This document shows positions 1 to 34,154 of a DNA stretch of 64,000 bases, piece after piece. Source of the stretch: Actinomycetota bacterium (GTDB lineage: Bacteria; Actinomycetota; Geothermincolia; Geothermincolales; RBG-13-55-18). Location: positions 76,834 to 140,833 of the forward strand of contig JAQVFR010000003.1 in assembly GCA_028697145.1 (NCBI GenBank), read 5' to 3'. Under the pieces are notes generated by a model. The model saw only the letters and a program-made list of their open reading frames with translations. It made no database searches and had not been told where the DNA came from. The position numbers and the translations under genes are program-made. Numbering within the stretch: the first letter of the stretch is position 1; each line of letters starts with the position of its first letter.

Positions 1-2548
1 CGCCGGCCGTGGCCAGGGCTGCGTTGAGGGCATCTGCCAGCGCGTTGGCATCGAGGGCCCCCACCAGGGAGGTGATCCATGCCTCGTTGGCGTTCAGACC
101 CTCGGCCATGGCCGCCCCGTCGAGGTGGTTGAGGATGTTCTCCACCAGCGCCGCGTTGCCGTTCAACCCCCGCGCCACCGCATCAGCCGTCTGGGCGTTG
201 AGGTTCTGGATCAGCGTGGCGATGAAGTCGTCCATGGGGTAAGGCCCCGTGGGCGGGTTCATGACATCGGCGATCACCTGGGCGAGCGCGGGGTCGGTCG
301 CCTCCACCAGTGCCTGTAGAAAACCTCCTCCGCCGGGTCCTGCGTTCTCGTTCAGGCCCATCGCCACCTCGTGCCCCACGTTGGCGTCCAGCCGTGGCAA
401 CAGGGTGGTTATAAGCTGGGTGTTGTTCTTGAGGCCCTGGGCTATCTCGACGGCGACCTGGTCGTTTAGGTTAGCCATGAGTTGCGTGGTCAAATCCGTT
501 GTGTTCTGGTTCAACCCCTCGGCAATGGCCATTCCCACCTGCGGGGAGAGGTTCTGAACAAGGGGGGCGATGATGGCCGGATTGGCGTTGAGGGCATCCG
601 CGATCCGGCGGCTGGTGCTGCCGCTGAGATAGCGGGCCACTGTTGTCGCCGTGGCCGGGTTGGCGTTCATGCCGTCCGCTATGGCCGCCGCCGCGGTATC
701 GTTGAGGTTCTCCAGCATGCCCGCGACGAAGTCGGGATTCGAGTTCACCGCGTCGGCAACCACCCTTGCGTCGGTCGAGACGAGCAGCGAGCGGATCATG
801 GACTGCGCCAGCGGCTGGCCGGCGTCGGTATTGACCCCGTTCGCTATGGCCTGGGCTGCCCCCTCGTTGAGGAGCGGTATGAGCCCGGCGATGAGCGCAT
901 CCGCGGCCCCCGAGTTCAGGATGCCGGCCAGCACCGCCGGATCCGCCGTCCCGAGTACGGTATCCAGCATGGCCGGGTTGGCGTTGAGGGCCTGCGCCGC
1001 GGCCTGGGCGACGTTATTGGGCAGCATGGCCAGAAGGGTGGGCACGAACAGTCCCGAGAGGTCCAGGGCGTGAGACACCTGTGCAGCGTCCAGGCTGTTG
1101 GTCAGGTTTATCAGCAACTGGGGGTTGTCGTTCGATCCCTTGAGGGCCGCCTCGACCAGCCCGGGGGATATCCCCCGCACCAGGCCGGTCAAGAAAGACG
1201 GGGCCTGGGCCAGGGCGGAGGCTATTTGCGCCCCGTCCAGGTTTGCCAGCAGGGCCTTGGCCAGCTCCGGGTTACCCTCCAGGGCCTCGTTGGTCATCTC
1301 GGCCATCACGGGGTCGAGCAGCGGCAGCAGGCGCGTAACGAAGTCGGTGTTCTCCCCCAGGGCAGCCCCGAGCGCCGCGGTGTCGATGAGGGGGAGCACC
1401 CGCGTGACCATGCTCTGGTTGTTGAGCATGGTCGCCACCAGCTCCGGATCTATCCTGTCCATGACCTTGTAGATGAGGTCGGGGTTGGCGTTGGCAATGC
1501 CCGCCGCCCAGGCGGGGTCGATGGCGTTGATGAGACCCGATGTGAACGGGGAGGAGTTGTTCATCATCGCCACTATCACCCCGGGGTCCAGCCTCGCCAT
1601 GAGATCGTTGATCCAGACGTGATCGTGCGCGGTGAGGGCGAGCACGTTGGACAGCAGCTGGTCGGAGAGGCTGCCCACCAGGTCGGCGGTGGAGCCGGAA
1701 TTGGCATTGAGAACCGCCGCGATGACCGCGGGATTGAGGTAGCTCATCATCCTGGACATGAAGGTGGGATGGGCGTTCATCCCCGCCGAGAGGACCGCGG
1801 GGTCGAGATATCTCATGATCCCCGAGACGAAGGAGCCGTTGGCGTTCACCACGCCGGCCACCACGGCGGTGTCCAGATACCCCAGGAGGTCGCCCACCAT
1901 GGACGGGTTGCCGTTCAGCGCCCCGGCCAGGACGGCCGGGTCCAGGAACCCTATGAGCGAGGTGACGAAGGGGCCGTTGGCGTTCACCGCTCCCGCTATG
2001 ACCGCCGCGTCCATGGCCCCCGTCATGGCCGTGAGAAACTCCACGTTCACGTTCAGCGCGTCCGCTATGACCTTGGGATCGAGCTGCCCCAGGAGATCCG
2101 CCACGACGGGCCCGCTCTCGTTGACTATGGTGGCTATAGCCTCGGGATCCAGGTATTCCATCACTTCCGTGATGAAATCGGCCGCGACCTGGTCGTTCAG
2201 GGCGTAGGCCAGGGTCGCCGGGTCCAGTTCGGAGAGAAGCGCGGCTACGAACTCCGGGCTCTCGTTTATCCCATCTGCTATGGTCTCGACGCCCTCTCCC
2301 TCCAGCGCCGTGAAGAGGTCCGCCATCATCTGGGGATTGTTGCGCATCGCCTCGGCCAGGGCTGCGGGGTCCAGGTTCTCGATGAGGCCCGAGAGGATGC
2401 GCTTTGTACAGGCGAGTTTGCCGATGAGGGGTCCGGCGGGATTACGGGAAGGGATGAAGGCCAGAGCGCCCACGACCAGCGCCCCGATGACCAGGACGAT
2501 GACCACGATGTTGATCACTGTCTGGACTGAAGTCCTCAGCATCCATAT
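1..2548 (-). CDS. Large membrane-anchored tandem-repeat protein, 3' end outside window; more than 30 copies of a ~25-aa repeat with consensus LDPxxLAxxLNxNPxF
   Basis: I translated the minus strand myself; this ORF is missing from the track because it has no stop inside the window. ATG at 2546-2548 is preceded by GAGGA. The N-terminus MLRTSVQTVINIVVIVLVIGALVVGALAFI is a TM/signal anchor. More than 850 aa follow with the recurring LDP..LA..LN.N motif. All plus-strand ORFs here are low-complexity G/V/R shadows. Confidence 0.6.
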   Translation of the reverse strand, partial: MWMLRTSVQTVINIVVIVLVIGALVVGALAFIPSRNPAGPLIGKLACTKRILSGLIENLDPAALAEAMRNNPQMMADLFTALEGEGVETIADGINESPEFVAALLSELDPATLAYALNDQVAADFITEVMEYLDPEAIATIVNESGPVVADLLGQLDPKVIADALNVNVEFLTAMTGAMDAAVIAGAVNANGPFVTSLIGFLDPAVLAGALNGNPSMVGDLLGYLDTAVVAGVVNANGSFVSGIMRYLDPAVLSAGMNAHPTFMSRMMSYLNPAVIAAVLNANSGSTADLVGSLSDQLLSNVLALTAHDHVWINDLMARLDPGVIVAMMNNSSPFTSGLINAIDPAWAAGIANANPDLIYKVMDRIDPELVATMLNNQSMVTRVLPLIDTAALGAALGENTDFVTRLLPLLDPVMAEMTNEALEGNPELAKALLANLDGAQIASALAQAPSFLTGLVRGISPGLVEAALKGSNDNPQLLINLTNSLDAAQVSHALDLSGLFVPTLLAMLPNNVAQAAAQALNANPAMLDTVLGTADPAVLAGILNSGAADALIAGLIPLLNEGAAQAIANGVNTDAGQPLAQSMIRSLLVSTDARVVADAVNSNPDFVAGMLENLNDTAAAAIADGMNANPATATTVARYLSGSTSRRIADALNANPAIIAPLVQNLSPQVGMAIAEGLNQNTTDLTTQLMANLNDQVAVEIAQGLKNNTQLITTLLPRLDANVGHEVAMGLNENAGPGGGGFLQALVEATDPALAQVIADVMNPPTGPYPMDDFIATLIQNLNAQTADAVARGLNGNAALVENILNHLDGAAMAEGLNANEAWITSLVGALDANALADALNAALATAG

Positions 2549-2574
2549 CCTCGCTTCAAACCTTCAGCCAATCG

Positions 2575-2690
2575 ATATTATACAAATATCCTGACTATAT
2601 ATAATAAACATCAAGACGGGCAGCCCTGTAAACCCCCAGTACGCTAATTTGCACCATTGTAGCAGCACGGTAACACATTTGTAACAACGC
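2575..2690 (-). promoter_or_regulatory. AT-rich promoter region for the repeat-protein gene, with TTACAA-N17-TACAAT and TGTATAAT-like elements on the minus strand
   Basis: This is the only AT-rich stretch in an otherwise GC-rich region. The hexamers were read directly on the reverse complement. It sits in the 283-bp gap between the S8 stop (2832) and the repeat-protein ATG (2548). Confidence 0.3.
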
Positions 2691-2831
2691 AAGCAAGCAT
2701 CTTTTGACCGGGGTGCTGTCTTGGCGGCCCGGACCGGCACCTGGTTTCCCGTTTCGTCCGACGCCCTCGCCCCGGTCCCCATCATCCGGCATCACGGAGT
2801 CAATCGTTGCTTTCGGCTCCCCCCGCCGCCG

Positions 2832-5657
2832 TCATGGATTCAATGCCCCGAGGGCGGCGCTCCCACCCTCCCGCTCGGACCAGTACATGGCGCGCTCCAC
2901 GACAAGGGGGGTATCCGAGGTGACCTGGACGGAAACATCCCGGCCGGGATCCACCTCGCCCGCGGTAACGGTTGCACGCTCGTACGCTCCCAGCTTCACC
3001 TGGTAGTCGAGGCTGCTGCCGTCGTTGCGCATGAAGCGGAGGGTAGCATGGGCGACGCGCTCCGTGGGATTGAGCAAGAGGACGAATTCCTCGAATCCCC
3101 ACGCGGTGGTGCCCTCGGCCAGGTACCATTCTCGCGACGCCGTAAGAGATCCCGAGCTGCCATGCCCGCCCGCGCGGGCGCGGGAGCCCCGGGGCCAGTA
3201 CATGGCCCGTTCTACGATGACCGGTTGTTCGCTGCGCACGTAGGTGGACACCTCGCTTCCCGGCACCGACTCGGCCATGTTCAGGGTAAGGCGCGAGCGC
3301 GGGCCCGCCGTGCGCACCGCTCGCACCACGCTCCCATCAGGCCTCATGAAGGAAAAGGTCACGCTCGCCGGGACATCGTTCGGGTTCTGCACCAGCACCC
3401 AGGTCTCGAACCCGTAATCGGTACATCCCTCTGCGAGGTACCAGGTGTTGCATCCGCCTGCGACCCCCAGGGTAGCGTGGCCACCGTCCCTCCCGTTCCA
3501 GTACATCGCCCTCTCCACCACCACCGGCACGTCGGATTGGATACGGGTGGAGGCATCGCTCGATCCGACCAGGTCGTTCAAGGGGAGGGTGAGGCGCGAA
3601 AACGCGGCTGTGGAGAAATCGAACTGCTGGGTGGAACCGTCCGGCCTCATGAAGGTCGCACGCACCGCTGCCGGGGTGGGGTTGGGGTTCTGCACCAGCA
3701 CGTATGTCTCGAAACCCCAGGCGGTCGAACCCTCGGCCAGGTACCAGTCCGATCCCAATGAGTTCGATCCCACCGCGACATGGCCTCCCCTCCTCCCGCC
3801 CCAGTACATGGCCCTTTCGGCCACCACCGGCACGTCTGCCCTCACGTGGGTGGAGACGTCGCTTGCGCTTACGAGTGAGTTGACCGCGATGGTAAGCCTC
3901 GAGTTGCCGCCCATCACGTAGGAATGACCCTGGGTCGCGCCCCCGGGCTTCATGAAATCCACCTGAACCTCTGCCGGGGTGGGGTTAGGATTCTGGATCA
4001 GCACGTAGGTCTCGAAACCCCAGGCGGTGCTTCCTTCCGCCAGGTACCAGTCCCGGGAGGGGCGCGGCTGGCTGCGGTTGTTGTACACCGTCACGGCGTG
4101 CTCGCCCTCCCATGTGCCGCCGGGATCGATGGCCTTGACGGTTATGATATGGGTCCCCTCCGCGAGCTGGCTGAGGTCCCATGACGTGAACTCGTGGCTC
4201 GAGTTGAACCCTGGTACAGGCTCGGAATAGGACTCGATGAGCGCTCCGTCCAGGTGGAACTCCAGGTACTTTACGGTCGTATTGGTACTGGCGGCCGCCG
4301 CGGACACCTTTCCCGAGGCCGGATAGGAGTAGTCCAGCGGATAGGTCACCGTTACCAGGGGTACCCTCAGGGCTCCACTGGCGTCGAGCAGCCCCCAGCC
4401 GTATTCCTCATCATAACCCGGGCTTCCCAGGTCGCGGGCGCTGTCCCTCAACCTGCGCCACACCTCGTCCGGGGTGGAGCCGGGGTATTCCGCCAGCACC
4501 AGCAGGGCGGCAGCCGACACGTGGGGGGTGGCCTCCGACGTGCCTGCGCCAAACTGGTAATCGTCGTTCAGCATGGTGCCGTAGATCCTCTCTCCGGGCG
4601 CCACAATGTCCACGCTGGAGTTACGGTTGGAAAACCAGGATCGGCTGCCGTCCATGCCTACGGAACCGACGCCGATGACGCCGGTGATGCCGGCGGGGTA
4701 ATTGACGCGAGCGTCGCCCTCGTTTCCGACCGCCGCCGTCAATACGCACCCCATGGAGATGGCGAACTCGACGGCATCGGCCAGTTCCTGCGAGTAAATC
4801 GACGAGGTCAGGCTCATGTTGATCACGTCGGCTCCGTTGGTGGCGGCATGGTAGATGGAGCTCACCACGCTGTCCAGGTAGCCCTCCCCATCGCTCCCCA
4901 GCGCCTTGAGGGGCATGATGCGCGCCTGCCAGTCCAGTCCGGCTATGCCGATACCGTTGTCGGTGTTGGCGCAGGCCATCCCGGACACCATGGTCCCGTG
5001 GCCGTTATCGTCCCAGGGGTCCGGGTCGTTGTTGAAGTAATCCCACCCCCCACTGTGGCGGCCGCTGAGGTCCTCGTGGGTATATTCCAGGCCGGTGTCG
5101 ATCACGGCCAGGGTCATTCCCGGCGACCCCTGCTGCATGTCCCATGCCTCGCCGGCGTTAACTCCGAAGGCGCCGCTCAGGTTCCATTGCTCGTCATAGA
5201 GGGCATCGTTCGGCTCCGTGGCGCAGACGCTGAAGACGATATTCGGCTCGGCCGCTCTGACCAGCGGCGAAGCCATGAGCTTGCGGGCGGCCTCCAGCTC
5301 GTCCTGCCCTGGACGCAGCCGCAGTCTTATCGCCGTCTTGCGGCGGCTCGCGACGAATTCGGAGAGGGCCTCCCCAGCGTCTCCGGCCAGGATGGCCGCG
5401 AACTCCCCGATGAGGCTGCCCAGGTCCTGGAGCGAGGGGGTCTCGAGCACCACCACGACCTCCCCGGGCTTGAAACTGCCGGGGGGATAATGCGACTTAT
5501 CGAGGCGCGCCGCAAGCGCTCTCTTCTCGGTATCGGTTTCCGCGGCCTCGGAGGCGGCGCACACCATGCCGGACAGGATGCCTAAACACAGCAAGGCGGC
5601 GATCAGGATGGAGGCGGCGGCGCGCAGGGCGGTCTCCGTCGTTTTTCTTCCGTGCAA
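2832..5657 (-). CDS. Secreted subtilisin-like serine peptidase (S8) with five C-terminal ~115-aa repeat domains
   Basis: Signal peptide (…ILIAALLCLGILSGMVCAASEA). S8 triad motifs VIDTGLEY (Asp), HGTMVSGMA (His), GTSEATPHVSAAA (Ser). Five copies of WYLAEG.T.GFET.VL.QNPN…PVVVERAMYW. TTG start preceded by GGGAGGAG. Confidence 0.85.
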   Translation of the reverse strand: MHGRKTTETALRAAASILIAALLCLGILSGMVCAASEAAETDTEKRALAARLDKSHYPPGSFKPGEVVVVLETPSLQDLGSLIGEFAAILAGDAGEALSEFVASRRKTAIRLRLRPGQDELEAARKLMASPLVRAAEPNIVFSVCATEPNDALYDEQWNLSGAFGVNAGEAWDMQQGSPGMTLAVIDTGLEYTHEDLSGRHSGGWDYFNNDPDPWDDNGHGTMVSGMACANTDNGIGIAGLDWQARIMPLKALGSDGEGYLDSVVSSIYHAATNGADVINMSLTSSIYSQELADAVEFAISMGCVLTAAVGNEGDARVNYPAGITGVIGVGSVGMDGSRSWFSNRNSSVDIVAPGERIYGTMLNDDYQFGAGTSEATPHVSAAALLVLAEYPGSTPDEVWRRLRDSARDLGSPGYDEEYGWGLLDASGALRVPLVTVTYPLDYSYPASGKVSAAAASTNTTVKYLEFHLDGALIESYSEPVPGFNSSHEFTSWDLSQLAEGTHIITVKAIDPGGTWEGEHAVTVYNNRSQPRPSRDWYLAEGSTAWGFETYVLIQNPNPTPAEVQVDFMKPGGATQGHSYVMGGNSRLTIAVNSLVSASDVSTHVRADVPVVAERAMYWGGRRGGHVAVGSNSLGSDWYLAEGSTAWGFETYVLVQNPNPTPAAVRATFMRPDGSTQQFDFSTAAFSRLTLPLNDLVGSSDASTRIQSDVPVVVERAMYWNGRDGGHATLGVAGGCNTWYLAEGCTDYGFETWVLVQNPNDVPASVTFSFMRPDGSVVRAVRTAGPRSRLTLNMAESVPGSEVSTYVRSEQPVIVERAMYWPRGSRARAGGHGSSGSLTASREWYLAEGTTAWGFEEFVLLLNPTERVAHATLRFMRNDGSSLDYQVKLGAYERATVTAGEVDPGRDVSVQVTSDTPLVVERAMYWSEREGGSAALGALNP

Positions 5658-5686: not shown

Positions 5687-6973
5687 TTATTCCGGGCCGC
5701 CGTTGAACTCGTCGTCCACGCCGGCGCGGGCTATATCCGCCCCCAGGGCGGAGAGCTTCTGCTCCAGCCTCTGATAACCCCGGTCGACGTGATGCACGTC
5801 CAGCAGGTGCGTCTCTCCCTCCGCCGTCAGTCCGGCCAGCACCAGGGCGGCGCCGGCGCGAAGATCCGGGGCGCAGACCTCGGCGCCGCTCAGGGCGCCG
5901 ACTCCCCGCACGATGGCATGATGGCCCTCGATATCGATGTCACACCCCATACGGTTGAGCTCGTCAACGAACATGAAGCGGCTCTCGAAGACGTTCTCGG
6001 TGATCACGCTGGTGCCGGAGGCAAGGCTCAGAAGGACCATCATCTGCGGCTGCAGATCGGTGGGGAAACCCGGGTAAGGCAGGGTGGCGAGGTTAACCGG
6101 CTCATACCCGCCGTCGCCCCTGACCATCATGCCGTCCTGGCGCTCCTCTACCTCCACTCCCGTCTCGCGCAGTTTCTCCAAAGGCAGGCCCAGGTGGGCC
6201 GGGTCTATGCCGCTCACGACCACCTCTCCCGCGGTCACCGCTGCCGCAACTGCCAGGGTGCCGGCCTCGATGCGGTCTCCGATGGCCTCGTGCTCCACTC
6301 CACTCAGCCTTGACGGTCCTGTGACCTCGATGACCGCCGTGCCCGCCCCCTCGATCTCCGCTCCCATGGAGCGCAGGAAGGCGACCAGGTCCTGTATCTC
6401 GGGTTCGCGGGCTGCGTTCTCTATTACCGTCCGTCCCTCTGCCCCCACGGCCGCCATGATGAGGTTCTCGGTCGCACCCACGCTGGGGAAATCCAGTATT
6501 ATCTGCGCCCCCTTCAGCCGCGGGGCGCGCGCACGCACGTAGCCGTGCTCGCTGCTTATCTCCGCCCCGAGTTCTGCCAGGCCCTTGAGGTGCATGTCGA
6601 TCTTGCGCGAGCCTATGTTGCATCCTCCCGGGATGGCCACTGACGCCTCGCCCCAGCGGGCGACCAGGGGCCCGAGGACGACGATGGACGCCCGCATCCT
6701 TCTCACCAGCTGGTAGGGGGCCTCCCGCGACGAGAAGTCCCCGGACCGTATTCTCAGCGCCTCGCCGTCCCATTCGACCTCCGCCCCCAGGTGCCGCAAC
6801 ACCTCGACCATTATCTCCACGTCGGTGATGCGGGGGACGTTGCGGATGACGCATTCCTCGGGGGTGAGCAGGCTTGCGGCCATAAGCTTGAGCACGGAGT
6901 TCTTCGCTCCGCCGACGCGAACCTCCCCCCGCAGGGAATTCCCGCCTGTGATAACGAACTTGCTCTTTTTCAT
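5687..6973 (-). CDS. murA: UDP-N-acetylglucosamine 1-carboxyvinyltransferase
   Basis: MKKSKFVITGGNSLRGEVRVGGAKNSVLKLMAASLL… is a typical MurA N-terminus and the fold runs full length. Start chosen at the ATG giving MKKSKF. Confidence 0.9.
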   Translation of the reverse strand: MKKSKFVITGGNSLRGEVRVGGAKNSVLKLMAASLLTPEECVIRNVPRITDVEIMVEVLRHLGAEVEWDGEALRIRSGDFSSREAPYQLVRRMRASIVVLGPLVARWGEASVAIPGGCNIGSRKIDMHLKGLAELGAEISSEHGYVRARAPRLKGAQIILDFPSVGATENLIMAAVGAEGRTVIENAAREPEIQDLVAFLRSMGAEIEGAGTAVIEVTGPSRLSGVEHEAIGDRIEAGTLAVAAAVTAGEVVVSGIDPAHLGLPLEKLRETGVEVEERQDGMMVRGDGGYEPVNLATLPYPGFPTDLQPQMMVLLSLASGTSVITENVFESRFMFVDELNRMGCDIDIEGHHAIVRGVGALSGAEVCAPDLRAGAALVLAGLTAEGETHLLDVHHVDRGYQRLEQKLSALGADIARAGVDDEFNGGPE

Positions 6974-7109
6974 ACCGAAAATGATACCACCTGCACCCAC
7001 CCTCCGCCTGTGCCGCGGGGTCAGGTTTTGCTTTCATGCAGAAAACCGCTGTTGCCAACAGGCAACATACCGGGGTATGCAAAAAACAAGACCTGACCCC
7101 ATCGAGCCG

Positions 7110-7769
7110 CTAGCCTCGCAACCTCTCCATACGCGCGGCTTCCTTGCGCTCCAGGGCCTTCTTGACCTTCTTGAGGCGGAAGATGTCCTCGCGGGCGCGC
7201 TCCTCGAGGCTCATCTGGATGAACTTGATCTGCTCGTCGTAATCGGGGATGACGATGTTCTCCAGCGCGTTCACGCGGCGGTTGGTCTTGCGCAGCTCCT
7301 CTCCAAGGCGCCTCAGCCGTGTCTCGATGTCGGCGGATTCGATGATAACGTCGATGATCTCCTCGAACTTCTCCGCCGCCGCGTCCACCCTGCTGGAGAC
7401 GCCGGTAATGCCGTACCCCCGCTTGAGGATATTGCGCATGCTGCTCTGCCCCTTGCGGATGACCGGGATAGGGACCCCCATGACGTGGGTACCCGTGATA
7501 TCCACCAGCACATCGCCCTGGGCGGCGTAGGACGCCGAGCGGACCTTCGTGCCCCCGTCCTTGGCCTTGGCCATGGCCAGGTCGAACTGGGCGTCGGCGG
7601 TAACTCTCTCCAGGCGCAGCGACAGACGCATGGTCTCATCGATGATGGGCATGAACTCCGCGAGCAGGGCGTCCCGCTTGCGTTTCAGAAGGTTCATCCC
7701 CTGGTCGGCCAGTGCGCGGTTGGCCTTGCGCTTTAAAAGCTCGCTCCGGGTCGGATGGACTTGTTCCAT
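7110..7769 (-). CDS. atpD: V/A-type ATP synthase subunit D
   Basis: 219 aa. The coiled-coil-rich sequence matches V-ATPase D; it is the last gene of the operon. Confidence 0.85.
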   Translation of the reverse strand: MEQVHPTRSELLKRKANRALADQGMNLLKRKRDALLAEFMPIIDETMRLSLRLERVTADAQFDLAMAKAKDGGTKVRSASYAAQGDVLVDITGTHVMGVPIPVIRKGQSSMRNILKRGYGITGVSSRVDAAAEKFEEIIDVIIESADIETRLRRLGEELRKTNRRVNALENIVIPDYDEQIKFIQMSLEERAREDIFRLKKVKKALERKEAARMERLRG

Positions 7770-7800
7770 GCGCCTTCTTCTCCTGCTCCGCCGCGCGCGA

Positions 7801-9222
7801 TCAGCTCTCGGCTGCGGCGAACTCCTCCGCCATCTCCGGGTTGTAGTTCTTGTCCACGTACTCCATCTTGATGCGCTTTATCGAGTCCTTAGGCATCATG
7901 CTGATGAGTTTCCACCCCAGTTCAAGGGTCTGGTCCAGCTCGCGGTTCTCTTCCTTCTGGTCGAGGTAGTTCTGCTCGAAGGCATCGGCGAACTTGAGCG
8001 CCATGCGGTCTATGTCCGTGAGGGCTTCCTCTCCCACGATAGCCACCAGGCGCCGCAGGTCCACGCCCTCTGCGTAGTAGGCGTAGAGCTGGTCGGCGAC
8101 GCCGCGGTGGTCCCCGCGCGTGCGCCCCTCGCCGATCCCCAGGTTCATGAGGCGTGAGAGGCAGGGCAAGACGTCGATGCAGGGGAAGATGCCGCGGCGG
8201 TGCAGGGTGCGCGAGAGCACGATCTGCCCCTCGGTGATATATCCCGTGAGGTCGGGGATGGGATGGGTGATGTCGTCGTCGGGCATTGCCAGGATGGGCA
8301 CCTGGGTGACGGAGCCGGGCTTGCCCTTGATGCGCCCCGCCCGCTCGTAGATGGAGGCCAGGTCGGTGTACATGTAACCGGGATATCCACGGCGGCCCGG
8401 CACCTCCTCGCGCGCGGTCGAGATCTCGCGCAGGGCCTCGCAATAGTTGGTCATGTCGGTGAGGATGACCAGCACCTGCATGTCGTGCTCGAAGGCCAGG
8501 AACTCCGCCACGGTAAGGGCGCAGCGCGGGGTCTGCAGCCTCTCCACCGTGGGGTCGTCGGCCAGATTGAGGAAGAAGACCACGCGCTCGAGGGCGCCCG
8601 AACGCGCGAAGCTGTCCTGGAAGAAAGAGGCCTCGCGGCGGGTGATGCCCATGGCTGCGAAGACGATGGCGAACTCCTCCCCTCCCACGATCTTCGCGTT
8701 CTTCACGATCTGCGCCGCGAGCTCGTTACCGGGAAGGCCGGCTCCCGAGAAGATGGGGAGCTTCTGCCCGCGCACCAGGGTGTTGAGGCCGTCGATGGCG
8801 GAAACCCCGGTCTGGATGAAGTCGCGGGGCTCCTCACGGCTCCAGGGGTTGATGGGCGAGCCGGAGATCTCCCGCTCCTCCTCCGGGAACACCTCGGGGC
8901 CCCCGTCGATGGGCTGCCCCAGGCCGTTGAGGACGCGCCCCAGGAGGTTGGCGGAGCAGGGCATCTTGGCTACCTCTCCCTGGAAACGCACGTTGGTCTT
9001 ATCCACGTCGAGCCCCGCCGTGGGGCCGAAGACCTGCACCACGGCCAGTTCACCCGAAAGCTCGATGACCTGTCCGTACTTGGTCGAGCCGTCCGCGGAG
9101 TGTATCTCCACCATCTCGTTGTAAGAAGCGCCCTTGACCTTGCTCACGAAGAGCAGGGGTCCGGCGACCTCTCCTACCGTGCGGTATTCCGTCGTGGCCA
9201 GGTAAGTACTACCGTTCGACAT
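7801..9222 (-). CDS. atpB: V/A-type ATP synthase subunit B
   Basis: 473 aa. A/B-family nucleotide-binding fold without a full P-loop (…[16 protein letters not shown]…). Confidence 0.9.
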
Positions 9223-9246
9223 CTTTAATCTCCCGCTTCCTCTTCC

Positions 9247-10995
9247 TTACCATTCGCTCAGCGACCTGAGCTCCTGCTGGACTCTATCCACCAGATCCGA
9301 TATCTTTTCCTCCGCCTGCTCGGACGGGATCTCTTTCATGCGCGCTATCTCGTTCTTGATGGGGTGCTCGGTGGCCTGACGCAGCGGCACGCCCTGCACC
9401 AGCACCTCCTCCAGGCAGTCGTAATAGGTGAGTATGACCTTGAGCATCAGGTACTGCTTGCGCAGCGAACAGAAGGCGTCGGTGTCGGAGAAGGCGAACT
9501 GCTGCAGGAAGTCCTCGCGCAGCATGCGCGTGGTCTCGAGCACCGCCTTGGCGAAGTCGGGCAGGGCGTCGGGCCCAACCAGCTGCACGATCTCCTGCAG
9601 CTCGACCTCCTTTTGCAGCAGGCTCATGGCCTTGTCGCGCAAGGCCCTCCATTCCTCGTCCACGTTCTTCAGGTACCACTCCTGGATCTGGTCGAGGTAA
9701 AGGGTGTAGCTCTTTATCCAGCTGATAGCCGGGAAGTGGCGGCGGTAGGCCAGCGAGGTGTCCAGCGCCCAGAAGGCCCCGGTGATGCGCAGGGAGTTCT
9801 GGGTCATAGGCTCGGAGAAGTCGCCGCCGGGGGGCGAGACCGCCCCGATGGCGGTGATGGAGCCCATGCGCTCGTCGCTTCCCAGGCAGACCGCGCGGCC
9901 GCAACGCTCGTAGAAGTCCGCCAGGCGTGTGGCCAGATATGCGGGATACCCTTCCTCCCCGGGCATCTCCTCCAGGCGCCCGGAGACCTCGCGCAGCGCC
10001 TCTCCCCAACGCGAGGTGGAGTCGGCCATGAGCGCCACGTTATAGCCCATGTCGCGGTAATATTCGGCCAGGGTGATGCCGGTGTAGATGGAAGCCTCGC
10101 GGGCGGCCACGGGCATGTTCGAGGTGTTGGCCACCAGGATGGTACGCTGCATGAGCGGCACCCCCGTCTTGGGGTCGATGAGGCTGGGGAACTCCGCCAG
10201 CACCTCGGTTATCTCGTTGCCCCTCTCCCCACAGCCGATGTAGATGACGATGTCGGCGTCCGCCCATTTGGCCAGGGTGGTCTCGGTCACCGTCTTGCCG
10301 GTGCCGAAACCTCCGGGGATGATGCTGTATCCGCCCTGGGCGATGGGGAAGAAGGTGTCCAGGATGCGGGTGCCGGTGATGAAAGGTACGGTGGGGTTCT
10401 CCTTGTTCTTGACCGGCCGGGGCACGCGCGCCGGCCAGGTCTGGTGCAGCTTGATCTCGCCTCCGCCTTCCAGGACTACCACCGTATCGTCGACCGTGAA
10501 ATCGCCCTCCTTGACCTGGGCCACCTTGCCGGACATGCCGGGCGGGACCATGATGCGGTGGGCGATGTGGGCGGTCTCCTGAACCTCGCCCACGATGTCC
10601 CCCTCGCCGACCTCGTCGCCCTCCTCCACCATGGGCTCGAAGGTCCAGGTGCGGTCACGTGGAAGGGCGAGAGTGGTGACGCCGCGCACCATGAAGTCGC
10701 CGTGTTCTTCGGCGATATCGACCAGCCTTCTCTGGATGCCGTCGTAGATGGAGGACAGCAAGCCCGGCCCCAGCTCGATGAGCAGGGGCTCCTCGGTGCA
10801 CTCCACCCTCTCCCCCACCTTGAGGCCCGAGGTGTCCTCGTAGACCTGCACGATGGCGACGTCCCCGTCCAGGCGCACCACCTCACCGATGAGCCCGAGA
10901 TCGCCCACTTTGGTGATATCATACATCTTGGCGCCGGCCATACCCTCGGCGTTCACCACGGGTCCGGATACCTTGGCAATCGTTCCCTCGATCAT
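9247..10995 (-). CDS. atpA: V/A-type ATP synthase catalytic subunit A
   Basis: 582 aa. P-loop GGFGTGKT and the non-homologous insert typical of A subunits. Confidence 0.9.
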
Positions 10996-11060
10996 ACCGA
11001 CACTCTCCCGTCTCCTAATCCTTCCCGCCTGCTAATATCCATCGCATCGCACCGGCTCAC

Positions 11061-11402
11061 CTATTCTCCCTCGCGACCCCGCAGGGTTATGTCGAACCCT
11101 ATGGCGCGATGGATGAGGCGGGCCAGGTACGCCCGCCGCTCCCCCGCCATCTCCACCGTCTCCTTGATGGGGAGGGGGATGACGATCGGCCGGTAGATGC
11201 TGTCTATCTTCTCCTGGGTCTTCTCGTCGATGTTATCGTAGAAGTGCTCGTTTACGGCCAGTATGCCGGCGTTGGGGTCATCCAGGAGGAGCTTGATCTT
11301 CTCCGATGCCTCGTCGGCGTTCTCGGCCTCCACCACGCTCACGCCCGCCAGGCGGAACCCATCCGCCGTCTCCGGGTCGGTCACCACTATGGCCTTGTAC
11401 AC
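11061..11402 (-). CDS. atpF: V/A-type ATP synthase subunit F
   Basis: 113 aa. MYKAIVVTDPETADGFRLAGV… is subunit F-like. GTG start. Confidence 0.8.
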   Translation of the reverse strand: MYKAIVVTDPETADGFRLAGVSVVEAENADEASEKIKLLLDDPNAGILAVNEHFYDNIDEKTQEKIDSIYRPIVIPLPIKETVEMAGERRAYLARLIHRAIGFDITLRGREGE

Positions 11403-11424
11403 CGGTCCCCACCTCTCCGGGCCG

Positions 11425-12522
11425 CTACTTCTCCCGTCCTTCCGTCTCCCGCATGTAGAGTTCCTTGCGGATCTGGGACTCGATCAGCCCGATGCTCTTT
11501 CCGCGCAGTATGATGCGCAGGTTCGTTATCTCCAGGTATTTCCTCCACATATATTCGATGATCACCCCGATGCCCAGGGGATCCTTGGACATCTTGAGGC
11601 AGCTCTCTATGACGTGCTTCTCCATCTCGTCCTCGAACGCGCTCTCTCCGCGCTCCTCGAAATTGCTCCATGCTTTCTCCAGGACTTTGCGGTAAGGGGT
11701 CTTCCTGCACAGCGCCTCGTACACCTGCTCCGGCTGCCCCAGCTCCATGATCCTCGTGAACTCCTTGGCGGTGGCGATGGTCCCGCCAGGCACAAAATAA
11801 TCTTCCGCCTTGGCGTCGGCGAGCTCGAGGCCGCAGATGCGCATGAGGGTCACGATGTTGATGGTGTCGATCTCCATCTTCACCACCTCGCGCACCAGCC
11901 CGGTGTTGGCATCGCCCCCCTTGAGCTGCTCGACGATCTTCGTGTAATGCAGCTTGTCCAGCGCCAGCTCCAGGATGGAGAGGTCCTGCTCCCGCAGGTA
12001 TTCGTCGAGGTGCTCGGTGAGAGCCTGCCCGTAGGGGACGCGCCAGTCGATGCTGAACATCACGATGGCGTCGATGGAGGCGCGCAGGTCGGGCTGGCTC
12101 ACGATCTCCTCGAGCACCACCTCGTCCAGGTAACCTATGGGTACCATGTTGCGCATGATCTCCGCCTTGGGGACGAGGGCGCGCATGCCACGCAGGGCGG
12201 TCTTGAGGTTATAGAGGTCCCAGCGGGCGAGGAGCGCATTCATCATCTCCTCGGGCTTGCCCATGAAGAATTCCTTTATCCTGGAGAAATTGCGCACGAA
12301 ATTGCGGTTGAAGGCGCGGTCCATGATGGTTGGCCGGGCGCCCTCCATCATGAAATGCTCGATGTCCTCCGCGTACTCGGTTTCCTCCAGTACCGCGATG
12401 GCCCGGTTGTAATCCGGCGCTTCGAGCAAGCTCTTGTATACGCTGTCGTCAAGGAGGCGGGCGTTCATAGCCCGCACCCTGGCATTGGCGTAGCTGTAAT
12501 CTTTCAGCGGGACCTGAACCAT
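11425..12522 (-). CDS. atpC: V/A-type ATP synthase subunit C (d)
   Basis: The track ORF (to 13131) has a spurious R/G-rich N-terminal extension that overlaps atpE. The real start is the ATG giving MVQVPLKDYSYANARVRAMNARLL…, preceded by GGAAA. Confidence 0.8.
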   Translation of the reverse strand: MVQVPLKDYSYANARVRAMNARLLDDSVYKSLLEAPDYNRAIAVLEETEYAEDIEHFMMEGARPTIMDRAFNRNFVRNFSRIKEFFMGKPEEMMNALLARWDLYNLKTALRGMRALVPKAEIMRNMVPIGYLDEVVLEEIVSQPDLRASIDAIVMFSIDWRVPYGQALTEHLDEYLREQDLSILELALDKLHYTKIVEQLKGGDANTGLVREVVKMEIDTINIVTLMRICGLELADAKAEDYFVPGGTIATAKEFTRIMELGQPEQVYEALCRKTPYRKVLEKAWSNFEERGESAFEDEMEKHVIESCLKMSKDPLGIGVIIEYMWRKYLEITNLRIILRGKSIGLIESQIRKELYMRETEGREK

Positions 12523-12560
12523 TATTTCCGCCTTTCGCCGCCGACATCGAAAGAGGGGGC

Positions 12561-13169
12561 TTAACCCCCTCCCGCCGCGGCCTTGACCTCCTCGCCGAAG
12601 AGGATTCCCGAGACGTGCATGCGCAATTTTTCTCGCGCGCGGTTCAATCTCTCCTCCACGGTGTTGACGATCCTCACCCTTCCATCCGCGTCGGTGATCG
12701 TGGCTCCTCCGGCGGTCTCGATATCTGAGCGCAGCTCGTAATCGCACCCCCGCTTGCGCATCACCATCTCCGCCGCCGCTTCGTCCGCGGGATCGACGTG
12801 CACCACGACCTTGCCGCTGATACGCGTCATCCCTTCGTCGATCAGGCTCTCCAGGATGGACGGGTAATCCTGGCGCGACCTCAGGTCGCGCAACCTCTCC
12901 TCCGTTTGCGCCAGGGCTTTTTCCGCGATCACTTCCTTGGCCGAGATGACCGCGTTCTTCGATTTCAGGCGGGCGGAATAGAGCATGGAGGTCGTCTCGC
13001 TCTGCGCCTCCGCCTTCACTTTCGCCAGCTTGGCCTGGCGGATGGCCTCGGCTTCCACCTGGGCTTTGTCCAGGATCTGCTTGGCCTCCGCTTCGGCCCG
13101 GCTGAAGATCTCCTGGCACTCCTGACGGCACTGGTCGTCAAGCGCCTGCAGGATGTCCTCTATAGACAT
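12561..13169 (-). CDS. atpE: V/A-type ATP synthase subunit E
   Basis: 202 aa. Charged helical stator-stalk sequence. Confidence 0.8.
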   Translation of the reverse strand: MSIEDILQALDDQCRQECQEIFSRAEAEAKQILDKAQVEAEAIRQAKLAKVKAEAQSETTSMLYSARLKSKNAVISAKEVIAEKALAQTEERLRDLRSRQDYPSILESLIDEGMTRISGKVVVHVDPADEAAAEMVMRKRGCDYELRSDIETAGGATITDADGRVRIVNTVEERLNRAREKLRMHVSGILFGEEVKAAAGGG

Positions 13170-13224
13170 GCCTTCACTTCCTGTAGTGTTAAGGTTGGGT
13201 ACGTGCCGGGTATCGTCCTACGGA

Positions 13225-13458
13225 TTATTCTCCGGGTTTCAGCCCGATAATCAGGAAGGATATAACGAATCCCAGTACTACCATGGTCTCGGGAATGGCG
13301 ATCATGATGATTGCGTTACCAACGAGCTCCGGTTTTTCCGCCAGCGCTCCCGCCATTGCAGCCCCGATCTTCGACTGCGACCACCCGGTCGCCAGAGCGG
13401 CCAGGCCTATAGCAAGGGCAGCTCCGATGGCGATGAGTCCAAGTTCCAAGCTATTCAC
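13225..13458 (-). CDS. atpK: V/A-type ATP synthase proteolipid subunit K (c)
   Basis: 77 aa. Two-helix proteolipid with a conserved carboxylate (…IPETMVVLGFV…). Confidence 0.85.
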   Translation of the reverse strand: MNSLELGLIAIGAALAIGLAALATGWSQSKIGAAMAGALAEKPELVGNAIIMIAIPETMVVLGFVISFLIIGLKPGE

Positions 13459-15469
13459 CTCCTGATCGTTTGAACGGCTTATAGACTACGTCTGCTTCCT
13501 GGTAAAACTTGGTGAAACTCTCAACCAAGTTGAGACGGAGGGATTGGATGGATGGGCTGAGTATTCCCAGGGCGATGTTCAACGTATGCAGCGCTCCCGC
13601 GACGATCACCCCCAGGATGATCATGAAGCCGCCACCGAATTCCGCGCCCAGCTCGTTGGCCACCTCGGCCAGGATCACCGAGGCCAGTCCGATGCCGTAG
13701 AGTCGGGCGTAGGACAGGAGGTTGCCGAAGGTGAGCGCCGCCTCCAGACCGCCCCCGAAGCCTCCACCGTAGCCGGCGAATCCGATGCCGACCACCGCCA
13801 TCACCGCCCACAGCGGCATGAGCACGCTCTTGGCGTCCTTGAAAGCCCACATGCCGAGGCCGACGAAGACCAGGCCGAGGATGAACATCAGGTACCCCGC
13901 CTTCTCGAAGGCATGCTTGCGGTCGTGATGGCGTATGCCGTCGATGAGCCCGATGGTCAGGGCCGCGCCCATGTGCAGGGCCCCGATGCAGATAACGATG
14001 ACGAGCAGCAGGCCGAAGAGGTTCTCGTTGGCCTGGGCTATACGTTCAAGGGGCCATCCCCAGGGTTTGCCGTTGGAGGTGTAACCCCATATCCACTGCA
14101 CCTCGGCGTGCCCGGCGGCATCTTTCCAGCCGAAGAGGCGGAAGAGCAGGTCTCCGAAGAACTCGAAGTAGAGAAGACCGAATATGAAAGACGATATTCC
14201 CGAGATAAAGAGAACATTCGCGAAGAGGGTCATGAAGACGCTCTTTGATTCGCGTTTCTTCATGATGCGCTTCATGAGCCATACCGCCCCGAATATAACC
14301 AGGGCATACCCCATGTCCCCCAGCATGAACCCGAAGAGGAGGGGGAAGAAGATGGCCACCAGGAAGGTGGGGTCGAGATGCCCGTACTTTGGCGGCTTGA
14401 TGAGGAGGTAGATGAACTCGAAGGGCTTGACCGCCGCCGGGTTATGCATGGCGGAGGGAGCCTCCTCCATCTCCGCGTGGGTGGGCATCTCCTCGGTGAT
14501 CTCCACCTTCCCCTCGTACTTTTCCTCCAGGAGCTTGCGCGTCTCCTCGACCTTGTCCGAGGGCATCCAGCCCGTGATCACGAAGACGTGCCCGCTCTGC
14601 CCGAACTTGGGGATGGCGTTGAGGGATTCCACGCGATCGGCGAGATATCCCTTTAGCGCCACCAGGGTTGCGTACCATTTGTTGGAAATATCCTCCAGGT
14701 CTTCCTTGACCTTCTTCAGCTTGGGGGGTATCTCCTTGTAGCGGGTCTCTATCTCCTGCAGCGCCTCGTCGTAGGGCTTGTCGGCAAGCTCGGTGGGAAG
14801 GCGCACCTGGTTGACGTTCTCCGCGGCCAGGAAGTTGTGCACCTGCTCGGAGTAGCGCTTGTGAAATACCAGGATGGCGGCGTGGGTGTTCTCGTCCACT
14901 CGGGCCGAGAATACGTCGCACTGCCCGCTGGTAATCCTCTCCAGCTCCTGCTCGATATAATCCAGGACCTGCTTGTAACGCTCCTCGATGAGCAGGGCTA
15001 CGGAGGTGTATTGCTCGGTGGTGGTGACCTTGCTGGCCAGGGGATAGACCTTCTTGATGATGGGCTCGTACTTCGAGAGGCGGGACATCTCCACTTCCAG
15101 CTCGTTCTTGTAGGAGATCAGCTCCCTGGTCGCGCTCTCTTCCTCTTCCACCATGGCCGATATGTCGGCGAGGGTCCTGCCCTGGAACGACCCGTATTTC
15201 TCGTCAATAACGGCGCTGCTTATCCGCTCCTTCGGCGGCGCCAGTTCGGAGAGAATGGCGTTGTTGCGCATCGCCAGGTTCTGTAAAAGGTTTCTTTCCT
15301 CCTCCAGTGCCGGGTCCATCTCCATGGGGATAAGATCCGCGTAGCGCGGGCCCCTCTTCTTGGTGATGTCCTCGAGATGGAGCGTGCCCAGGTCCTGCAG
15401 GGTCTCGAGCACCTGGAAGAACAGGGTCTTCACCCCCACGATCTCCACTTTTGACATCGTCAATAACAT
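13451..15469 (-). CDS. atpI: V/A-type ATP synthase subunit I (a)
   Basis: 672 aa. Soluble N-domain plus a C-terminal polytopic membrane domain. Confidence 0.85.
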   Translation of the reverse strand: MLLTMSKVEIVGVKTLFFQVLETLQDLGTLHLEDITKKRGPRYADLIPMEMDPALEEERNLLQNLAMRNNAILSELAPPKERISSAVIDEKYGSFQGRTLADISAMVEEEESATRELISYKNELEVEMSRLSKYEPIIKKVYPLASKVTTTEQYTSVALLIEERYKQVLDYIEQELERITSGQCDVFSARVDENTHAAILVFHKRYSEQVHNFLAAENVNQVRLPTELADKPYDEALQEIETRYKEIPPKLKKVKEDLEDISNKWYATLVALKGYLADRVESLNAIPKFGQSGHVFVITGWMPSDKVEETRKLLEEKYEGKVEITEEMPTHAEMEEAPSAMHNPAAVKPFEFIYLLIKPPKYGHLDPTFLVAIFFPLLFGFMLGDMGYALVIFGAVWLMKRIMKKRESKSVFMTLFANVLFISGISSFIFGLLYFEFFGDLLFRLFGWKDAAGHAEVQWIWGYTSNGKPWGWPLERIAQANENLFGLLLVIVICIGALHMGAALTIGLIDGIRHHDRKHAFEKAGYLMFILGLVFVGLGMWAFKDAKSVLMPLWAVMAVVGIGFAGYGGGFGGGLEAALTFGNLLSYARLYGIGLASVILAEVANELGAEFGGGFMIILGVIVAGALHTLNIALGILSPSIQSLRLNLVESFTKFYQEADVVYKPFKRSGGE

Positions 15470-32642: not shown

Positions 32643-34154
32643 CTACCTTCCGAGGAGGGAATATATCAGGGGGATGTCCAGGGAGCGGCGGACAACGACG
32701 GCAAGGCGGTCGAGATGCCCTTCCCTCCATTCCAGCCAGTCCCGCTCCAGGTGCATCTCGGGGAGGCCGCGGCGTCGGCGCAGTTGATTCAGGAATGCCT
32801 CCATCAGGGGGCGGTTTTCGAAAAGACCGTGCAGATAGCACCCGAAAACGGGGAGGCGGTCGTGGTGGGCGCCGTCCGGGATGTTTGCCTCCACCCCGTC
32901 CCTTTCCGTGATAAGCAATGGGGGTCGCGACCCGCCCCGCGTATCTCCCATGTGGATCTCGTATCCCGCGAGGGCTGCGGCGGATGGCTCCAGCCCCATG
33001 AACGGCACGGCACGCTCGACCACCGCCCTGACGCGGTGCGTGCTCTTGCCGCCGCCGAGGACGGTCGTGACCGGCAACAGCCCGAGCCCTTCCGTCTCAC
33101 GGCGGCAGGATTCAACGCTCCCGGGGTCCTCTATCCTCTCTCCCAGCATCTGGTAGCCGCCGCAGATGCCGATGACCGGGACACCCAGGTGCGCCAGGCG
33201 GACGACCTGCGCGGCCAGCCCGTTCTCCCGCAGGTAATCCAGGTCGGCTACGGTACTCTTGCAGCCGGGAAGGATAACCGCGTCCGGGATGCCCAGGCGC
33301 GCGGGCCCGCTCACGAATCGCAAACCGACCCCCGGCTCGCGGGCCAGGGGGTCGAAGTCGGTGGCGTTGGAGATATGCGGGAGGTGGAGCACGGCGATGT
33401 CCAGGGCTTGCGCGGCGTCCTTGCCCGCGGCGGCGGAGCGCAGTTCCTCCAGGTTGACCGTGTCCTCCTCCTCGAGGCCGAGATCACGTATATACGGCAC
33501 CACGCCCAGGACCGGTTTTCCCGTCCTCTCCTCCAGGAATTCCAGGCCTCCCCCCAGCAGCTCGAGGGAGCCGCGGAACTTGTTGATGATGAAGCCGGCC
33601 ACCAGGTCTCTCTCCTCCGGCTCCAGCAGCTCCAGGGTGCCCACCAGGGCGGCGAACACGCCCCCGCGGTCAATGTCCCCCACCAGGATTACCGGGGCGC
33701 CCGCCGCCCGGGCCACGCGCATGTTCGCTATGTCACGGTCCGCGAGGTTTATCTCCGCCGGGCTGCCCGCGCCCTCCATGACCACGATGTCGTACGTGGC
33801 GCGCAACCTCTCCAGAGCCTCCAGCGCGGCGGGCAGGAATTCCAGCTTGAGGAGGTGGTATTCCCCCGCCGCCATGTGCCGCACCGGCCTGCCGTTGAGG
33901 ATGACCTGCGCCATTTCGTCAGAGGCGGGCTTGAGCAGGATGGGATTCATGTCGGTATGCGGTTCTGTGCCCGCCGCCTGGGCCTGCAACACCTGGGCTC
34001 GCCCCATCTCCCCCCCCTGGGGAGTCACGTAAGAGTTGAGGGACATGTTCTGGGACTTGAACGGCGCCACCCGCCAGCCGTCCTGCGCGAAGATGCGGCA
34101 GAGCGCCGCTGCCATGACGCTCTTTCCCGTGTGGGAGCCGGTGCCCTGCACCAT
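32643..34154 (-). CDS. cobQ: Cobyric acid synthase
   Basis: CobQ/CbiP ATPase N-domain (GTGSHTGKS) and a C-terminal glutamine amidotransferase domain. Start at the ATG giving MVQGTGS. Confidence 0.85.
   Translation of the reverse strand: MVQGTGSHTGKSVMAAALCRIFAQDGWRVAPFKSQNMSLNSYVTPQGGEMGRAQVLQAQAAGTEPHTDMNPILLKPASDEMAQVILNGRPVRHMAAGEYHLLKLEFLPAALEALERLRATYDIVVMEGAGSPAEINLADRDIANMRVARAAGAPVILVGDIDRGGVFAALVGTLELLEPEERDLVAGFIINKFRGSLELLGGGLEFLEERTGKPVLGVVPYIRDLGLEEEDTVNLEELRSAAAGKDAAQALDIAVLHLPHISNATDFDPLAREPGVGLRFVSGPARLGIPDAVILPGCKSTVADLDYLRENGLAAQVVRLAHLGVPVIGICGGYQMLGERIEDPGSVESCRRETEGLGLLPVTTVLGGGKSTHRVRAVVERAVPFMGLEPSAAALAGYEIHMGDTRGGSRPPLLITERDGVEANIPDGAHHDRLPVFGCYLHGLFENRPLMEAFLNQLRRRRGLPEMHLERDWLEWREGHLDRLAVVVRRSLDIPLIYSLLGR

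Follow-up and report, generated by a model that had tools for sequence, protein, structure and literature searches.

We analysed a window of 64,000 nucleotides from an Actinomycetota bacterium of the order Geothermincolales (GenBank assembly GCA_028697145.1, contig JAQVFR010000003.1, positions 76,834 to 140,833 of the forward strand). Its left end is occupied by a minus-strand gene, referred to here as gene A, which encodes a membrane-anchored protein made largely of short repeats and is preceded by co-oriented genes for a secreted S8 protease, an EPSP_synthase-family protein and a V/A-type ATPase. Judged by its orthologs, gene A is the first member of a triad of paralogs that is conserved in relatives and whose products may form a scaffold in the cell envelope. 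Its frame is open from an ATG at 2542-2540, the likely start, to window base 2, a run of 847 codons that leaves the window at its left edge, and a GAGGA Shine-Dalgarno sequence lies about 7 nucleotides upstream of the start (about 2550-2554). The translation begins MLRTSVQTVINIVVIVLVIGALVVGALAFIPSRNP and then enters the repeats. The G+C content at third codon positions (GC3) is 0.86, matching every other gene in the window, and homologs align over 100% of the protein with 55-79% identity. The uninterrupted minus-strand open reading frame (ORF) proposed in a preliminary description of this DNA is thus confirmed, and gene A is a genuine conserved coding gene. Long spurious ORFs do arise in high-GC DNA, here 65% GC, and the antisense strand also bears an ORF of 682 residues (482-2530, plus strand). 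However, the GC3 of that ORF is 0.66, and gene A has dozens of full-length homologs with conserved order. The alternatives, a chance frame or a named repeat family (LRV or HEAT) that escaped the eye, run counter to the available evidence and have next to no probability.

Because the closest orthologs (75-79% identity) are about 950-1000 residues long, gene A lacks only an estimated 130 or so C-terminal residues, which lie off the window. Full-length orthologs have about 975-1005 residues, the one at locus L005 for instance 979, and full-length relatives overall span about 870-1085. The protein is therefore large, but not the giant of the preliminary description. An exact 30-mer from the left end of the window found no match in metagenome contigs, and no copy of gene A nearer than 79% identity in genome collections, or 63% in protein collections, was found.

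The repeats were delimited with a hidden Markov model (HMM) of a 23-residue unit built from the window protein, in which copies were counted when they scored above 0. It detected 25 repeats, compared with a mean of 0.28 (maximum 3) across 50 shuffles. The consensus unit is LDPaVIAgaVNaNGpFLsxLxGx, and the full pattern across the family reads L D P a V I A g a V N a N G/P x F L s x L x G x. Among 335 ungapped units from 60 family proteins, the most regular positions were N11 (90%), L1 (88%), A7 (86%), D2 (82%) and P3 (80%), followed by F16 (76%), N13 (75%) and L20 (73%). Between residues 106 and 456 the spacing is exactly 23, with a few double gaps at degenerate copies, while between residues 590 and 745 it is 26-27 residues, with units of the type LNxxxAxAIAxGLNxNxxxxxxLxxx. 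The period of about 24-27 residues given earlier consequently describes the C-terminal half (26-27) but not the N-terminal half (23). Likewise, the earlier count of more than 30 repeats exceeds the 25 found by sequence and is reached only when degenerate copies, or the modelled helical hairpins, are included.

According to AlphaFold2, the transmembrane helix is followed by 66 helices of about 10 residues, that is, about 33 hairpins. The model of the whole window protein has a predicted local distance difference test (pLDDT) score of 69, and a separate model of residues 100-365 reached a pLDDT of 82.4 and a predicted template modelling score of 0.78, with paired 10-residue helices. DSSP assigned two regular 10-residue alpha helices to each unit. 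The repeats of the C-terminal half are the most confident region (pLDDT about 85-93, residues 600-760), whereas pLDDT falls below 50 at residues 406-499, where few unit matches occur; this stretch between the repeat blocks is possibly a hinge. The prediction is thus of an alpha-solenoid whose stacked units are unusually short, and the helical-looking repeat noted previously is borne out by a model consisting entirely of stacked helical hairpins. Tandem Repeats Finder detected only one DNA-level array in the gene (69 bp x 2.1 copies, 76% identity, 1714-1856, residues about 229-276), which rules out a recent expansion of the repeat at the DNA level and points to repeats of old origin that have since diverged.

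Neither in the window protein nor in 44 relatives did any Pfam or NCBIfam model score as high as its cutoff, and the NCBIfam scan of the window protein returned nothing meaningful. HEAT, HEAT_2, Arm, LRV and LRV_2 were all missing from the families listed for the window protein (E up to 1) and from those matched by the 44 relatives (E up to 0.01). Two LRV proteins, at E of about 1e-6, were weak hits to the family profile in the search of representative proteins, the one point in favour of a known family overlooked by eye. LRV membership was nevertheless rejected on the lack of an HMM match and on an hhalign comparison with the LRV protein P0155 (itself matching LRV at 2.7e-60), which gave a probability of 11% over 68 columns and, with a single-sequence template, is a weak test. 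In these searches the repeat family is outside all curated repeat families, in agreement with the earlier view that it is no named repeat and not HEAT/PBS, TPR or pentapeptide. The nearest structural match of the repeat is a designed repeat protein. Of the other hits in the representative search, the long proteins P0087, P0097 and P0145 proved to be unrelated low-complexity repeat proteins, P0128 combines EF-hands with a sub-threshold MgtE_N match, P0110 carries a BACK domain and P0144 has no convincing domain.

Below the cutoffs, the window protein matched MgtE_N (22.3 bits, cutoff 25.9, E 2e-4), FliG_M (16.3 bits, cutoff 25, E 0.011) and XPC-binding. When the 44 relatives were scanned singly, sub-threshold matches appeared to MgtE_N in 11, to XPC-binding in 16, and to FliG_C and FliG_M in one each. 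FliG and MgtE chains also ranked first in a profile search of PDB sequences (E 0.01-0.6), although fold similarity to the solved MgtE N domain or to FliG was not found. The repeat may therefore be remotely related to the MgtE_N/FliG type.

Relatives were sought in 5.8 billion proteins, which returned 17, the full-length ones having 869-1014 residues, 100% query coverage and 36-63% identity. A profile search of 1.84 billion representatives gave 198 hits at E <= 1e-3, mostly fragments. A genome scan yielded 29 loci, all but three of them assigned to uncultured Actinomycetota, namely Ca. Geothermincola/Geothermincolales, Anoxymicrobiaceae, Acidimicrobiales and unclassified Actinomycetota. Exceptions were the three loci of two metagenome-assembled genomes (MAGs) labelled only "uncultured bacterium", together with L033, where a Deltaproteobacteria MAG gave a weak hit. 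By its distribution in these searches, the family is confined to deep-branching uncultured Actinomycetota (Geothermincolia, Anoxymicrobiaceae and Acidimicrobiales MAGs). The loci fall into clade 1, which includes the window and comprises L005-L019, and clade 2 (L004, L022-L024, L026, L028 and L029), at 25-32% identity. Shorter relatives of about 220-300 residues, with about nine repeats, a higher charge and no transmembrane segment, occur in Ca. Geothermincola secundus and an uncultured bacterium (L031, 9983-10879; L032, 9977-10648). They are probably cytoplasmic, and the gene next to them, with an N-terminal NH-x-S motif read by eye, is presumably a PlsC-type acyltransferase.

Wherever genes had been called on homolog contigs, three consecutive, co-oriented genes of similar size were always present, none with a Pfam domain, and their translations had the repeats and the N-terminal transmembrane motif in common. 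When the ORFs of every retrieved locus were searched with an HMM, exactly three tandem members were identified in 20 loci. In clade 1, BLAST scores averaged 560-1080 bits between genes at the same position and 340-460 bits to other positions; positional orthology is equally strict in clade 2. By this measure the window gene is of type A, the first of the triad. Genes B and C presumably lie beyond the left edge of the window, which ends inside gene A; the triad is present in the closest relatives (75-79% identity), and these keep the upstream synteny of the window. Each subunit of the triad consists of a very short basic N-terminus, a transmembrane helix with invariant Gln and Asn, a Pro/Gly juxtamembrane motif, a very acidic, Lys/Arg-poor solenoid of 800-950 residues with a predicted 33-40 or so helix-turn-helix repeats, whose turns are capped by Asp-Pro and Asn-x-Asn, and a non-repeat tail of about 70 residues. 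The window protein fits this family, with the transmembrane helix and motif in residues 7-42 and LDP..A...N.N..F repeats in residues 57-847. This three-paralog operon, which the preliminary description did not see, is the most informative feature of the system. Since three distinct paralogs are kept in a fixed order and carry invariant polar residues in the membrane, we infer that they form a hetero-oligomer.

Alignment of 72 family members revealed four invariant columns, Q7 just before the transmembrane helix, N11 at its start, A65 and P70, while P31, G37 and G41 after the helix are nearly invariant. The N-terminal anchor described earlier is a genuine 23-residue transmembrane helix, but the export signal is an uncleaved signal-anchor and not a classical signal peptide. 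Across 67 members the tail before the helix has 3-8 residues (8 in the window protein) with 1-2 Lys/Arg; it is invariably basic and has almost no acidic residues. In the 20 residues following the helix there are 2-4 Lys/Arg, more than in the tail in 46 of the 67. The repeat domain contains 2.7% Lys+Arg, 10.2% Asp+Glu, 9% Asn and no Cys, with an isoelectric point of 4.05, compared with 9-20% Lys+Arg in cytoplasmic proteins of the window and 7% in the secreted protease. In clade 2, the first paralog has an N-terminal extension of about 100 residues before the homologous transmembrane helix, composed of a conserved, helical-looking domain of about 75 residues and a Lys/Arg-rich linker. Lacking a signal peptide, this extension must be cytoplasmic, and the homology of the helix and juxtamembrane motif implies an N-in/C-out orientation for all paralogs. 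In addition, P0016, a 698-residue metagenome protein from a single 3.6-kb contig, fuses gene A-type repeats to TIG domains. Because of the clade-2 extension, the low Lys+Arg content, the TIG fusion and the secreted nature of the conserved partners, we consider it fairly probable that the solenoid is extracytoplasmic, N-in/C-out.

The opposite topology, N-out/C-in, would make the protein a cytoplasmic, membrane-tethered superhelix of the FliG/MgtE_N type, acting as a cation-sensing or motor/switch-like scaffold. Besides the sub-threshold profile matches and the PDB ranking given above, the surplus of Lys/Arg after the helix fits such an arrangement, and the basal actinobacterial classes of these relatives are often flagellated (PMC10746217). 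Yet no curated cutoff was reached, and no CBS/MgtE channel or flagellar switch gene was found in the protein or its neighbours at about 30 loci. Export of the 100-residue clade-2 domain that precedes the same helix would be implausible without a signal peptide, the Lys+Arg content of the solenoid is far under that of this genome's cytoplasmic proteins, and the neighbours are secreted. We therefore regard a cytoplasmic superhelix as quite improbable.

The gene upstream of gene A encodes a protein with a signal peptide, a prodomain, an intact S8 domain, Big_7 and four DUF5719 units of about 105 residues (2832-4100, minus strand; WYLAEG[ST]T..GFET.V.[IV]QNP ... ERAMYW). Its residues 433-941 resemble the last 500 or so residues of secreted clade-2 proteins of about 2100 residues (35-41% identity), which carry beta-propeller, BNR and TIG domains at the N-terminus instead of the protease. 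In 19 of the 24 loci with enough flank, a Big_7+DUF5719 gene is found no more than about 1.2 kb from the triad. The association persists across clade, upstream or downstream position, fusion partner and all other neighbours, and we therefore take the Big_7+DUF5719 module, rather than protease activity, as the functional partner of the triad. The link to the S8 protease that the preliminary description drew from co-orientation is thus real, but runs through the C-terminal module and not through the protease domain. A literature search on DUF5719 retrieved no paper, and a PDB sequence search with the module no relative.

The protease gene and gene A are separated by 289 nucleotides, not 283 as stated previously. 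Within the spacer, GTTACA-18-TACAAT (2685-2656), preceded by a TG, resembles a sigma-70 promoter, and there is a weak terminator-like hairpin. Both are pattern matches only, and an Rfam search of the spacer found no element. With a putative promoter of its own, gene A need not be co-transcribed with the protease gene, and the triad may be transcribed separately. Three independent metagenome contigs end 390-455 nucleotides upstream of gene A (L003 1-455, L006 1-393, L019 1-395), possibly because the tandem DUF5719 units upstream break the assembly there.

The conserved order in clade 1 is V/A-type ATPase genes, EPSP_synthase-family gene, S8 protease, A, B and C, and the synteny upstream of the protease is kept in about 10-14 related MAGs. 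Gene C is usually followed by ABC_tran (DrrA), ABC2_membrane, HisKA_7TM and LuxR-type regulator genes, or else by a secreted TIG/propeller protein of 1070-1115 residues. The triad could accordingly be the extracytoplasmic scaffold of the adjacent DrrA-type ABC/ABC-2 exporter, guiding a polymer or lipid across the wall much as the TPR scaffolds AlgK, BcsC and PelB serve exopolysaccharides, with the DUF5719 link secondary. Consistent with this, ABC_tran (with DrrA1-3_C) and ABC2_membrane directly follow gene C in at least 11 clade-1 loci, with the HisKA_7TM kinase and LuxR-type regulator next. In L009, L011, L014 and L017, however, gene C is followed by something else, and the exporter is absent in clade 2, where nearby ABC genes encode the domains of an importer dependent on a substrate-binding protein (PBP_like_2, BPD_transp_1, ABC_tran+TOBE), whose substrate is probably molybdate. 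Moreover, ABC-2 transporters commonly occur with a HisKA_3-type two-component system as a module complete in itself. An exporter scaffold thus appears unlikely.

In clade 2 the order is an extracytoplasmic function (ECF) sigma factor, the first, second and third paralogs, the secreted protein of about 2100 residues (in four of seven loci: L022-L024 and L029) and a Zn-ribbon membrane protein. The sigma gene, encoding Sigma70_r2 and r4_2 domains, lies directly upstream of the first paralog in L004, L022, L023, L026, L028 and L029; L026 has only the sigma factor and the first-paralog type, without the other two paralogs. Among NCBIfam models, that of the BldN family fits the sigma factor best, scoring 174 bits where the cutoff is 206. 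Streptomyces BldN drives expression of the chaplins and rodlins, proteins of the surface sheath, and is restrained by RsbN, a single-pass protein with a 117-residue cytoplasmic domain and a 272-residue ectodomain of unknown function (PMC6101532). The clade-2 first paralog, and only this paralog, resembles RsbN in being encoded directly after a BldN-like sigma factor and in combining a cytoplasmic domain of about 100-117 residues, one transmembrane helix and a large ectodomain, although the 272-residue RsbN ectodomain is not known to be a gene A-type repeat. The parallel with RsbN is one of architectural analogy.

From this layout it could be argued that the solenoids are not structural scaffolds but sensor domains, gating the ECF sigma factor in clade 2 or the HisKA_7TM kinase in clade 1. 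The sigma-then-first-paralog arrangement of six loci, the solitary pair in L026 and the BldN/RsbN likeness all speak for it. But the window protein and all clade-1 members, with only 3-8 residues before the helix, have no cytoplasmic domain of the sigma-binding or any other kind; the gene upstream of gene A encodes the S8 protease, not a sigma factor. Three paralogs of about 900 residues also seem excessive for a sensor, and the clade-2 extension is unlike known anti-sigma domains. We consequently assign the sensor explanation a low probability.

Two further elements occur beside clade-2 triads. A conserved protein of about 360 residues encoded downstream is not a fourth family member: a charged linker joins an N-terminal Cys4 zinc-ribbon, which L004 lacks, to a hydrophobic C-terminal part with about four predicted transmembrane helices, and the protein belongs to no Pfam family. 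In L004 (1-6400) and L028 (3300-8700), a Tad/type-II-like cluster is divergent from the sigma-triad operon; its Pfam domains in L004 are T2SSE, two T2SSF, an AAA_31 ATPase, an A24 prepilin peptidase and DUF4244, and the L028 genes were matched to it by BLAST clustering. The Tad genes near the L004 triad raised the possibility of a type IV/Tad prepilin-like N-terminus for the family, which was rejected, as no G/xxxxEY or G/FTLxE motif was found in the N-termini and the Gly before the helix is absent in most members.

Taken together, we propose that the solenoids of A, B and C lie outside the cytoplasmic membrane, N-in/C-out, and that the three proteins would be held together by their polar transmembrane helices as a rod-like, hetero-oligomeric scaffold of the cell envelope. 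This scaffold would dock or organise secreted Big_7+DUF5719 proteins, represented in the window by the S8 protease. In clade 2 the apparatus may be wired to the BldN-like ECF sigma factor through the paralog with the RsbN-like cytoplasmic N-terminal domain, suggesting that the system is part of a programme of the envelope or surface, on which it can report. That three paralogous single-pass proteins form a hetero-oligomeric envelope scaffold docking the co-encoded DUF5719-module proteins is, in our judgement, about evenly balanced between right and wrong. Of the surface or periplasmic scaffold suggested in the preliminary description, the extracytoplasmic location gains indirect support from clade-2 paralog topology and composition, and the scaffold role is proposed.

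Several observations weigh against this proposal. A naive positive-inside count is ambiguous and slightly favours a C-in, cytoplasmic solenoid; the MgtE_N/FliG matches, weak as they are, point to cytoplasmic domains; and the existence of relatives of about 300 residues without a transmembrane segment indicates that the repeat is not intrinsically extracellular. Five informative loci (L001, L002, L004, L026 and L028) have no DUF5719 gene nearby, and the V-ATPase/EPSP-synthase synteny of clade 1 may partly reflect lineage inertia. The clade-2 extension has no detectable similarity to RsbN or to any anti-sigma domain, neither being returned when it was compared with Pfam, NCBIfam and PDB. Finally, both hetero-oligomerisation and binding of the DUF5719 module are deduced from gene order. 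A bolder version, which we consider speculative and rather doubtful, is that the triad of these basal Actinomycetota forms a hitherto unrecognised envelope-spanning heterotrimeric alpha-solenoid stalk. It would anchor and display a surface layer of DUF5719 proteins, such as the protease and the large beta-propeller proteins, and, in some lineages, feed its assembly state to a BldN-type developmental sigma factor via the RsbN-like paralog; if true, this would amount to a novel type of cell-surface organelle with signalling built in.

The coordinates of gene A and the accompanying features are compiled in Table 1. Elsewhere in the window, the ORF for the AC39/C subunit of the V/A-type ATPase (11425-13131, minus strand, 568 residues) matches Pfam only over residues 215-556 and has a lower GC3 of 0.71, so that the first 214 or so residues may result from a mis-called start, or represent a fused small subunit or a gene missed in annotation. 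A cobalamin riboswitch (40397-40574, minus strand, 100 bits) lies upstream of a co-oriented block (32643-40227) encoding a CobT-type phosphoribosyltransferase, a FecCD/ABC/binding-protein uptake system and a CobQ-type amidotransferase. Two minus-strand ORFs, 50553-52010 (485 residues) and 52616-55075 (819 residues), have gene-like GC3 values of 0.83-0.85 and no Pfam hit at E <= 1e-5.

Table 1. Coordinates of gene A, its parts and the associated features (window positions unless a locus is named)
Feature	Position	Strand	Evidence
Gene A (first of the triad), codons 1-847 out of ~980 estimated	1..2542	-	Open frame, GC3, homologs, triad loci
Transmembrane signal-anchor, residues 9-31 (23-residue hydrophobic helix)	2450..2518	-	Sequence; N-terminal comparison of 67 members
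Juxtamembrane motif P31-x3-P35-x-G37-x3-G41-K, common to paralogs A, B and C	2402..2452	-	Alignment
Regular 23-residue repeats, residues 106-456	1175..2227	-	Unit HMM spacing, unit frequencies, AlphaFold2 segment model
Degenerate low-confidence stretch, residues 407-499	1046..1324	-	pLDDT, few unit matches
Repeats of the C-terminal half, residues 590-847, 26-27-residue units	2..775	-	Unit HMM spacing, pLDDT
AT-rich spacer, 289 nucleotides, with sigma-70-like promoter match and GAGGA Shine-Dalgarno	2543..2831	-	Consensus match only
Secreted S8 protease with Big_7+DUF5719 module	2832..5657	-	Peptidase_S8 7e-52, Big_7, DUF5719; DTG, HGT and GTSEATP motifs
Big_7 and four tandem ~105-residue DUF5719-type units, protease residues 433-941	2832..4361	-	Identity to C-termini of the ~2100-residue clade-2 proteins
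EPSP_synthase-family (MurA/AroA-type) gene after the V/A-ATPase operon	5687-7000	-	
V/A-type ATPase operon, subunits I, C/AC39, A, B and D	7110-15469	-	
Zn-ribbon proteins of ~360 residues (no ribbon in L004) downstream of clade-2 triads	L029 15540-16628; L024 13787-14887; L028 17771-18901; L004 15245-16180		

Neither Pfam nor NCBIfam has a model for the gene A family, and we found no solved structure of a relative and no publication on it. Alpha-solenoids are well known within eukaryotic cells, but large ones outside the bacterial membrane are uncommon, and especially so with a 23-residue unit and in fixed trios. For the orphan DUF5719 module, the triad provides a consistent genomic partner for the first time, and clade 2 ties both to a BldN-like sigma factor, in Streptomyces a regulator of surface-sheath proteins. 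The triad thereby offers a handle on the envelope architecture of lineages that are not yet culturable. Protein designers may also find the very regular unit, with its Asp-Pro and Asn-x-Asn caps, of interest, as its nearest structural match is a designed repeat protein.

Among known systems, the ARM-like repeats of the MgtE N-terminal domain and FliG (PF03448, PF14841, PF01706) come closest in sequence, being the only curated models with recurrent, sub-threshold matches to the family, and they share two-helix repeats of about 23-30 residues arranged in a superhelix. Those domains, however, are cytoplasmic, consist of 4-10 helices and are joined to CBS/transporter modules or to the flagellar switch, whereas the window protein has a predicted 66 or more helices, an N-terminal transmembrane anchor, a probably extracytoplasmic location and no such partners. 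LRV (PF01816) has a comparable period (24 as against 23 residues) and a similar Asp-Pro ... Asn-Pro punctuation, but its repeat is alpha/3-10 helical, while the unit of the window protein is modelled as two alpha helices and matches no LRV HMM. With HEAT/ARM solenoids (karyopherins, CAND1, beta-catenin) the window protein shares, in the model, tandem antiparallel helix hairpins stacked into a solenoid; it matches none of their HMMs, and its repeats of 23 and 26-27 residues are about half the length of their 37-47. Unlike HEAT/ARM and designed helical-repeat proteins, it is also bacterial, membrane-anchored and probably outside the cell. The TPR/Sel1 periplasmic scaffolds AlgK, BcsC and PelB offer a functional analogy only, as extracytoplasmic helical scaffolds encoded with export machinery and secreted partners; their 34-44-residue repeats are unrelated, they belong to a Gram-negative outer-membrane context, and they are single proteins where gene A belongs to a fixed trio of paralogs.

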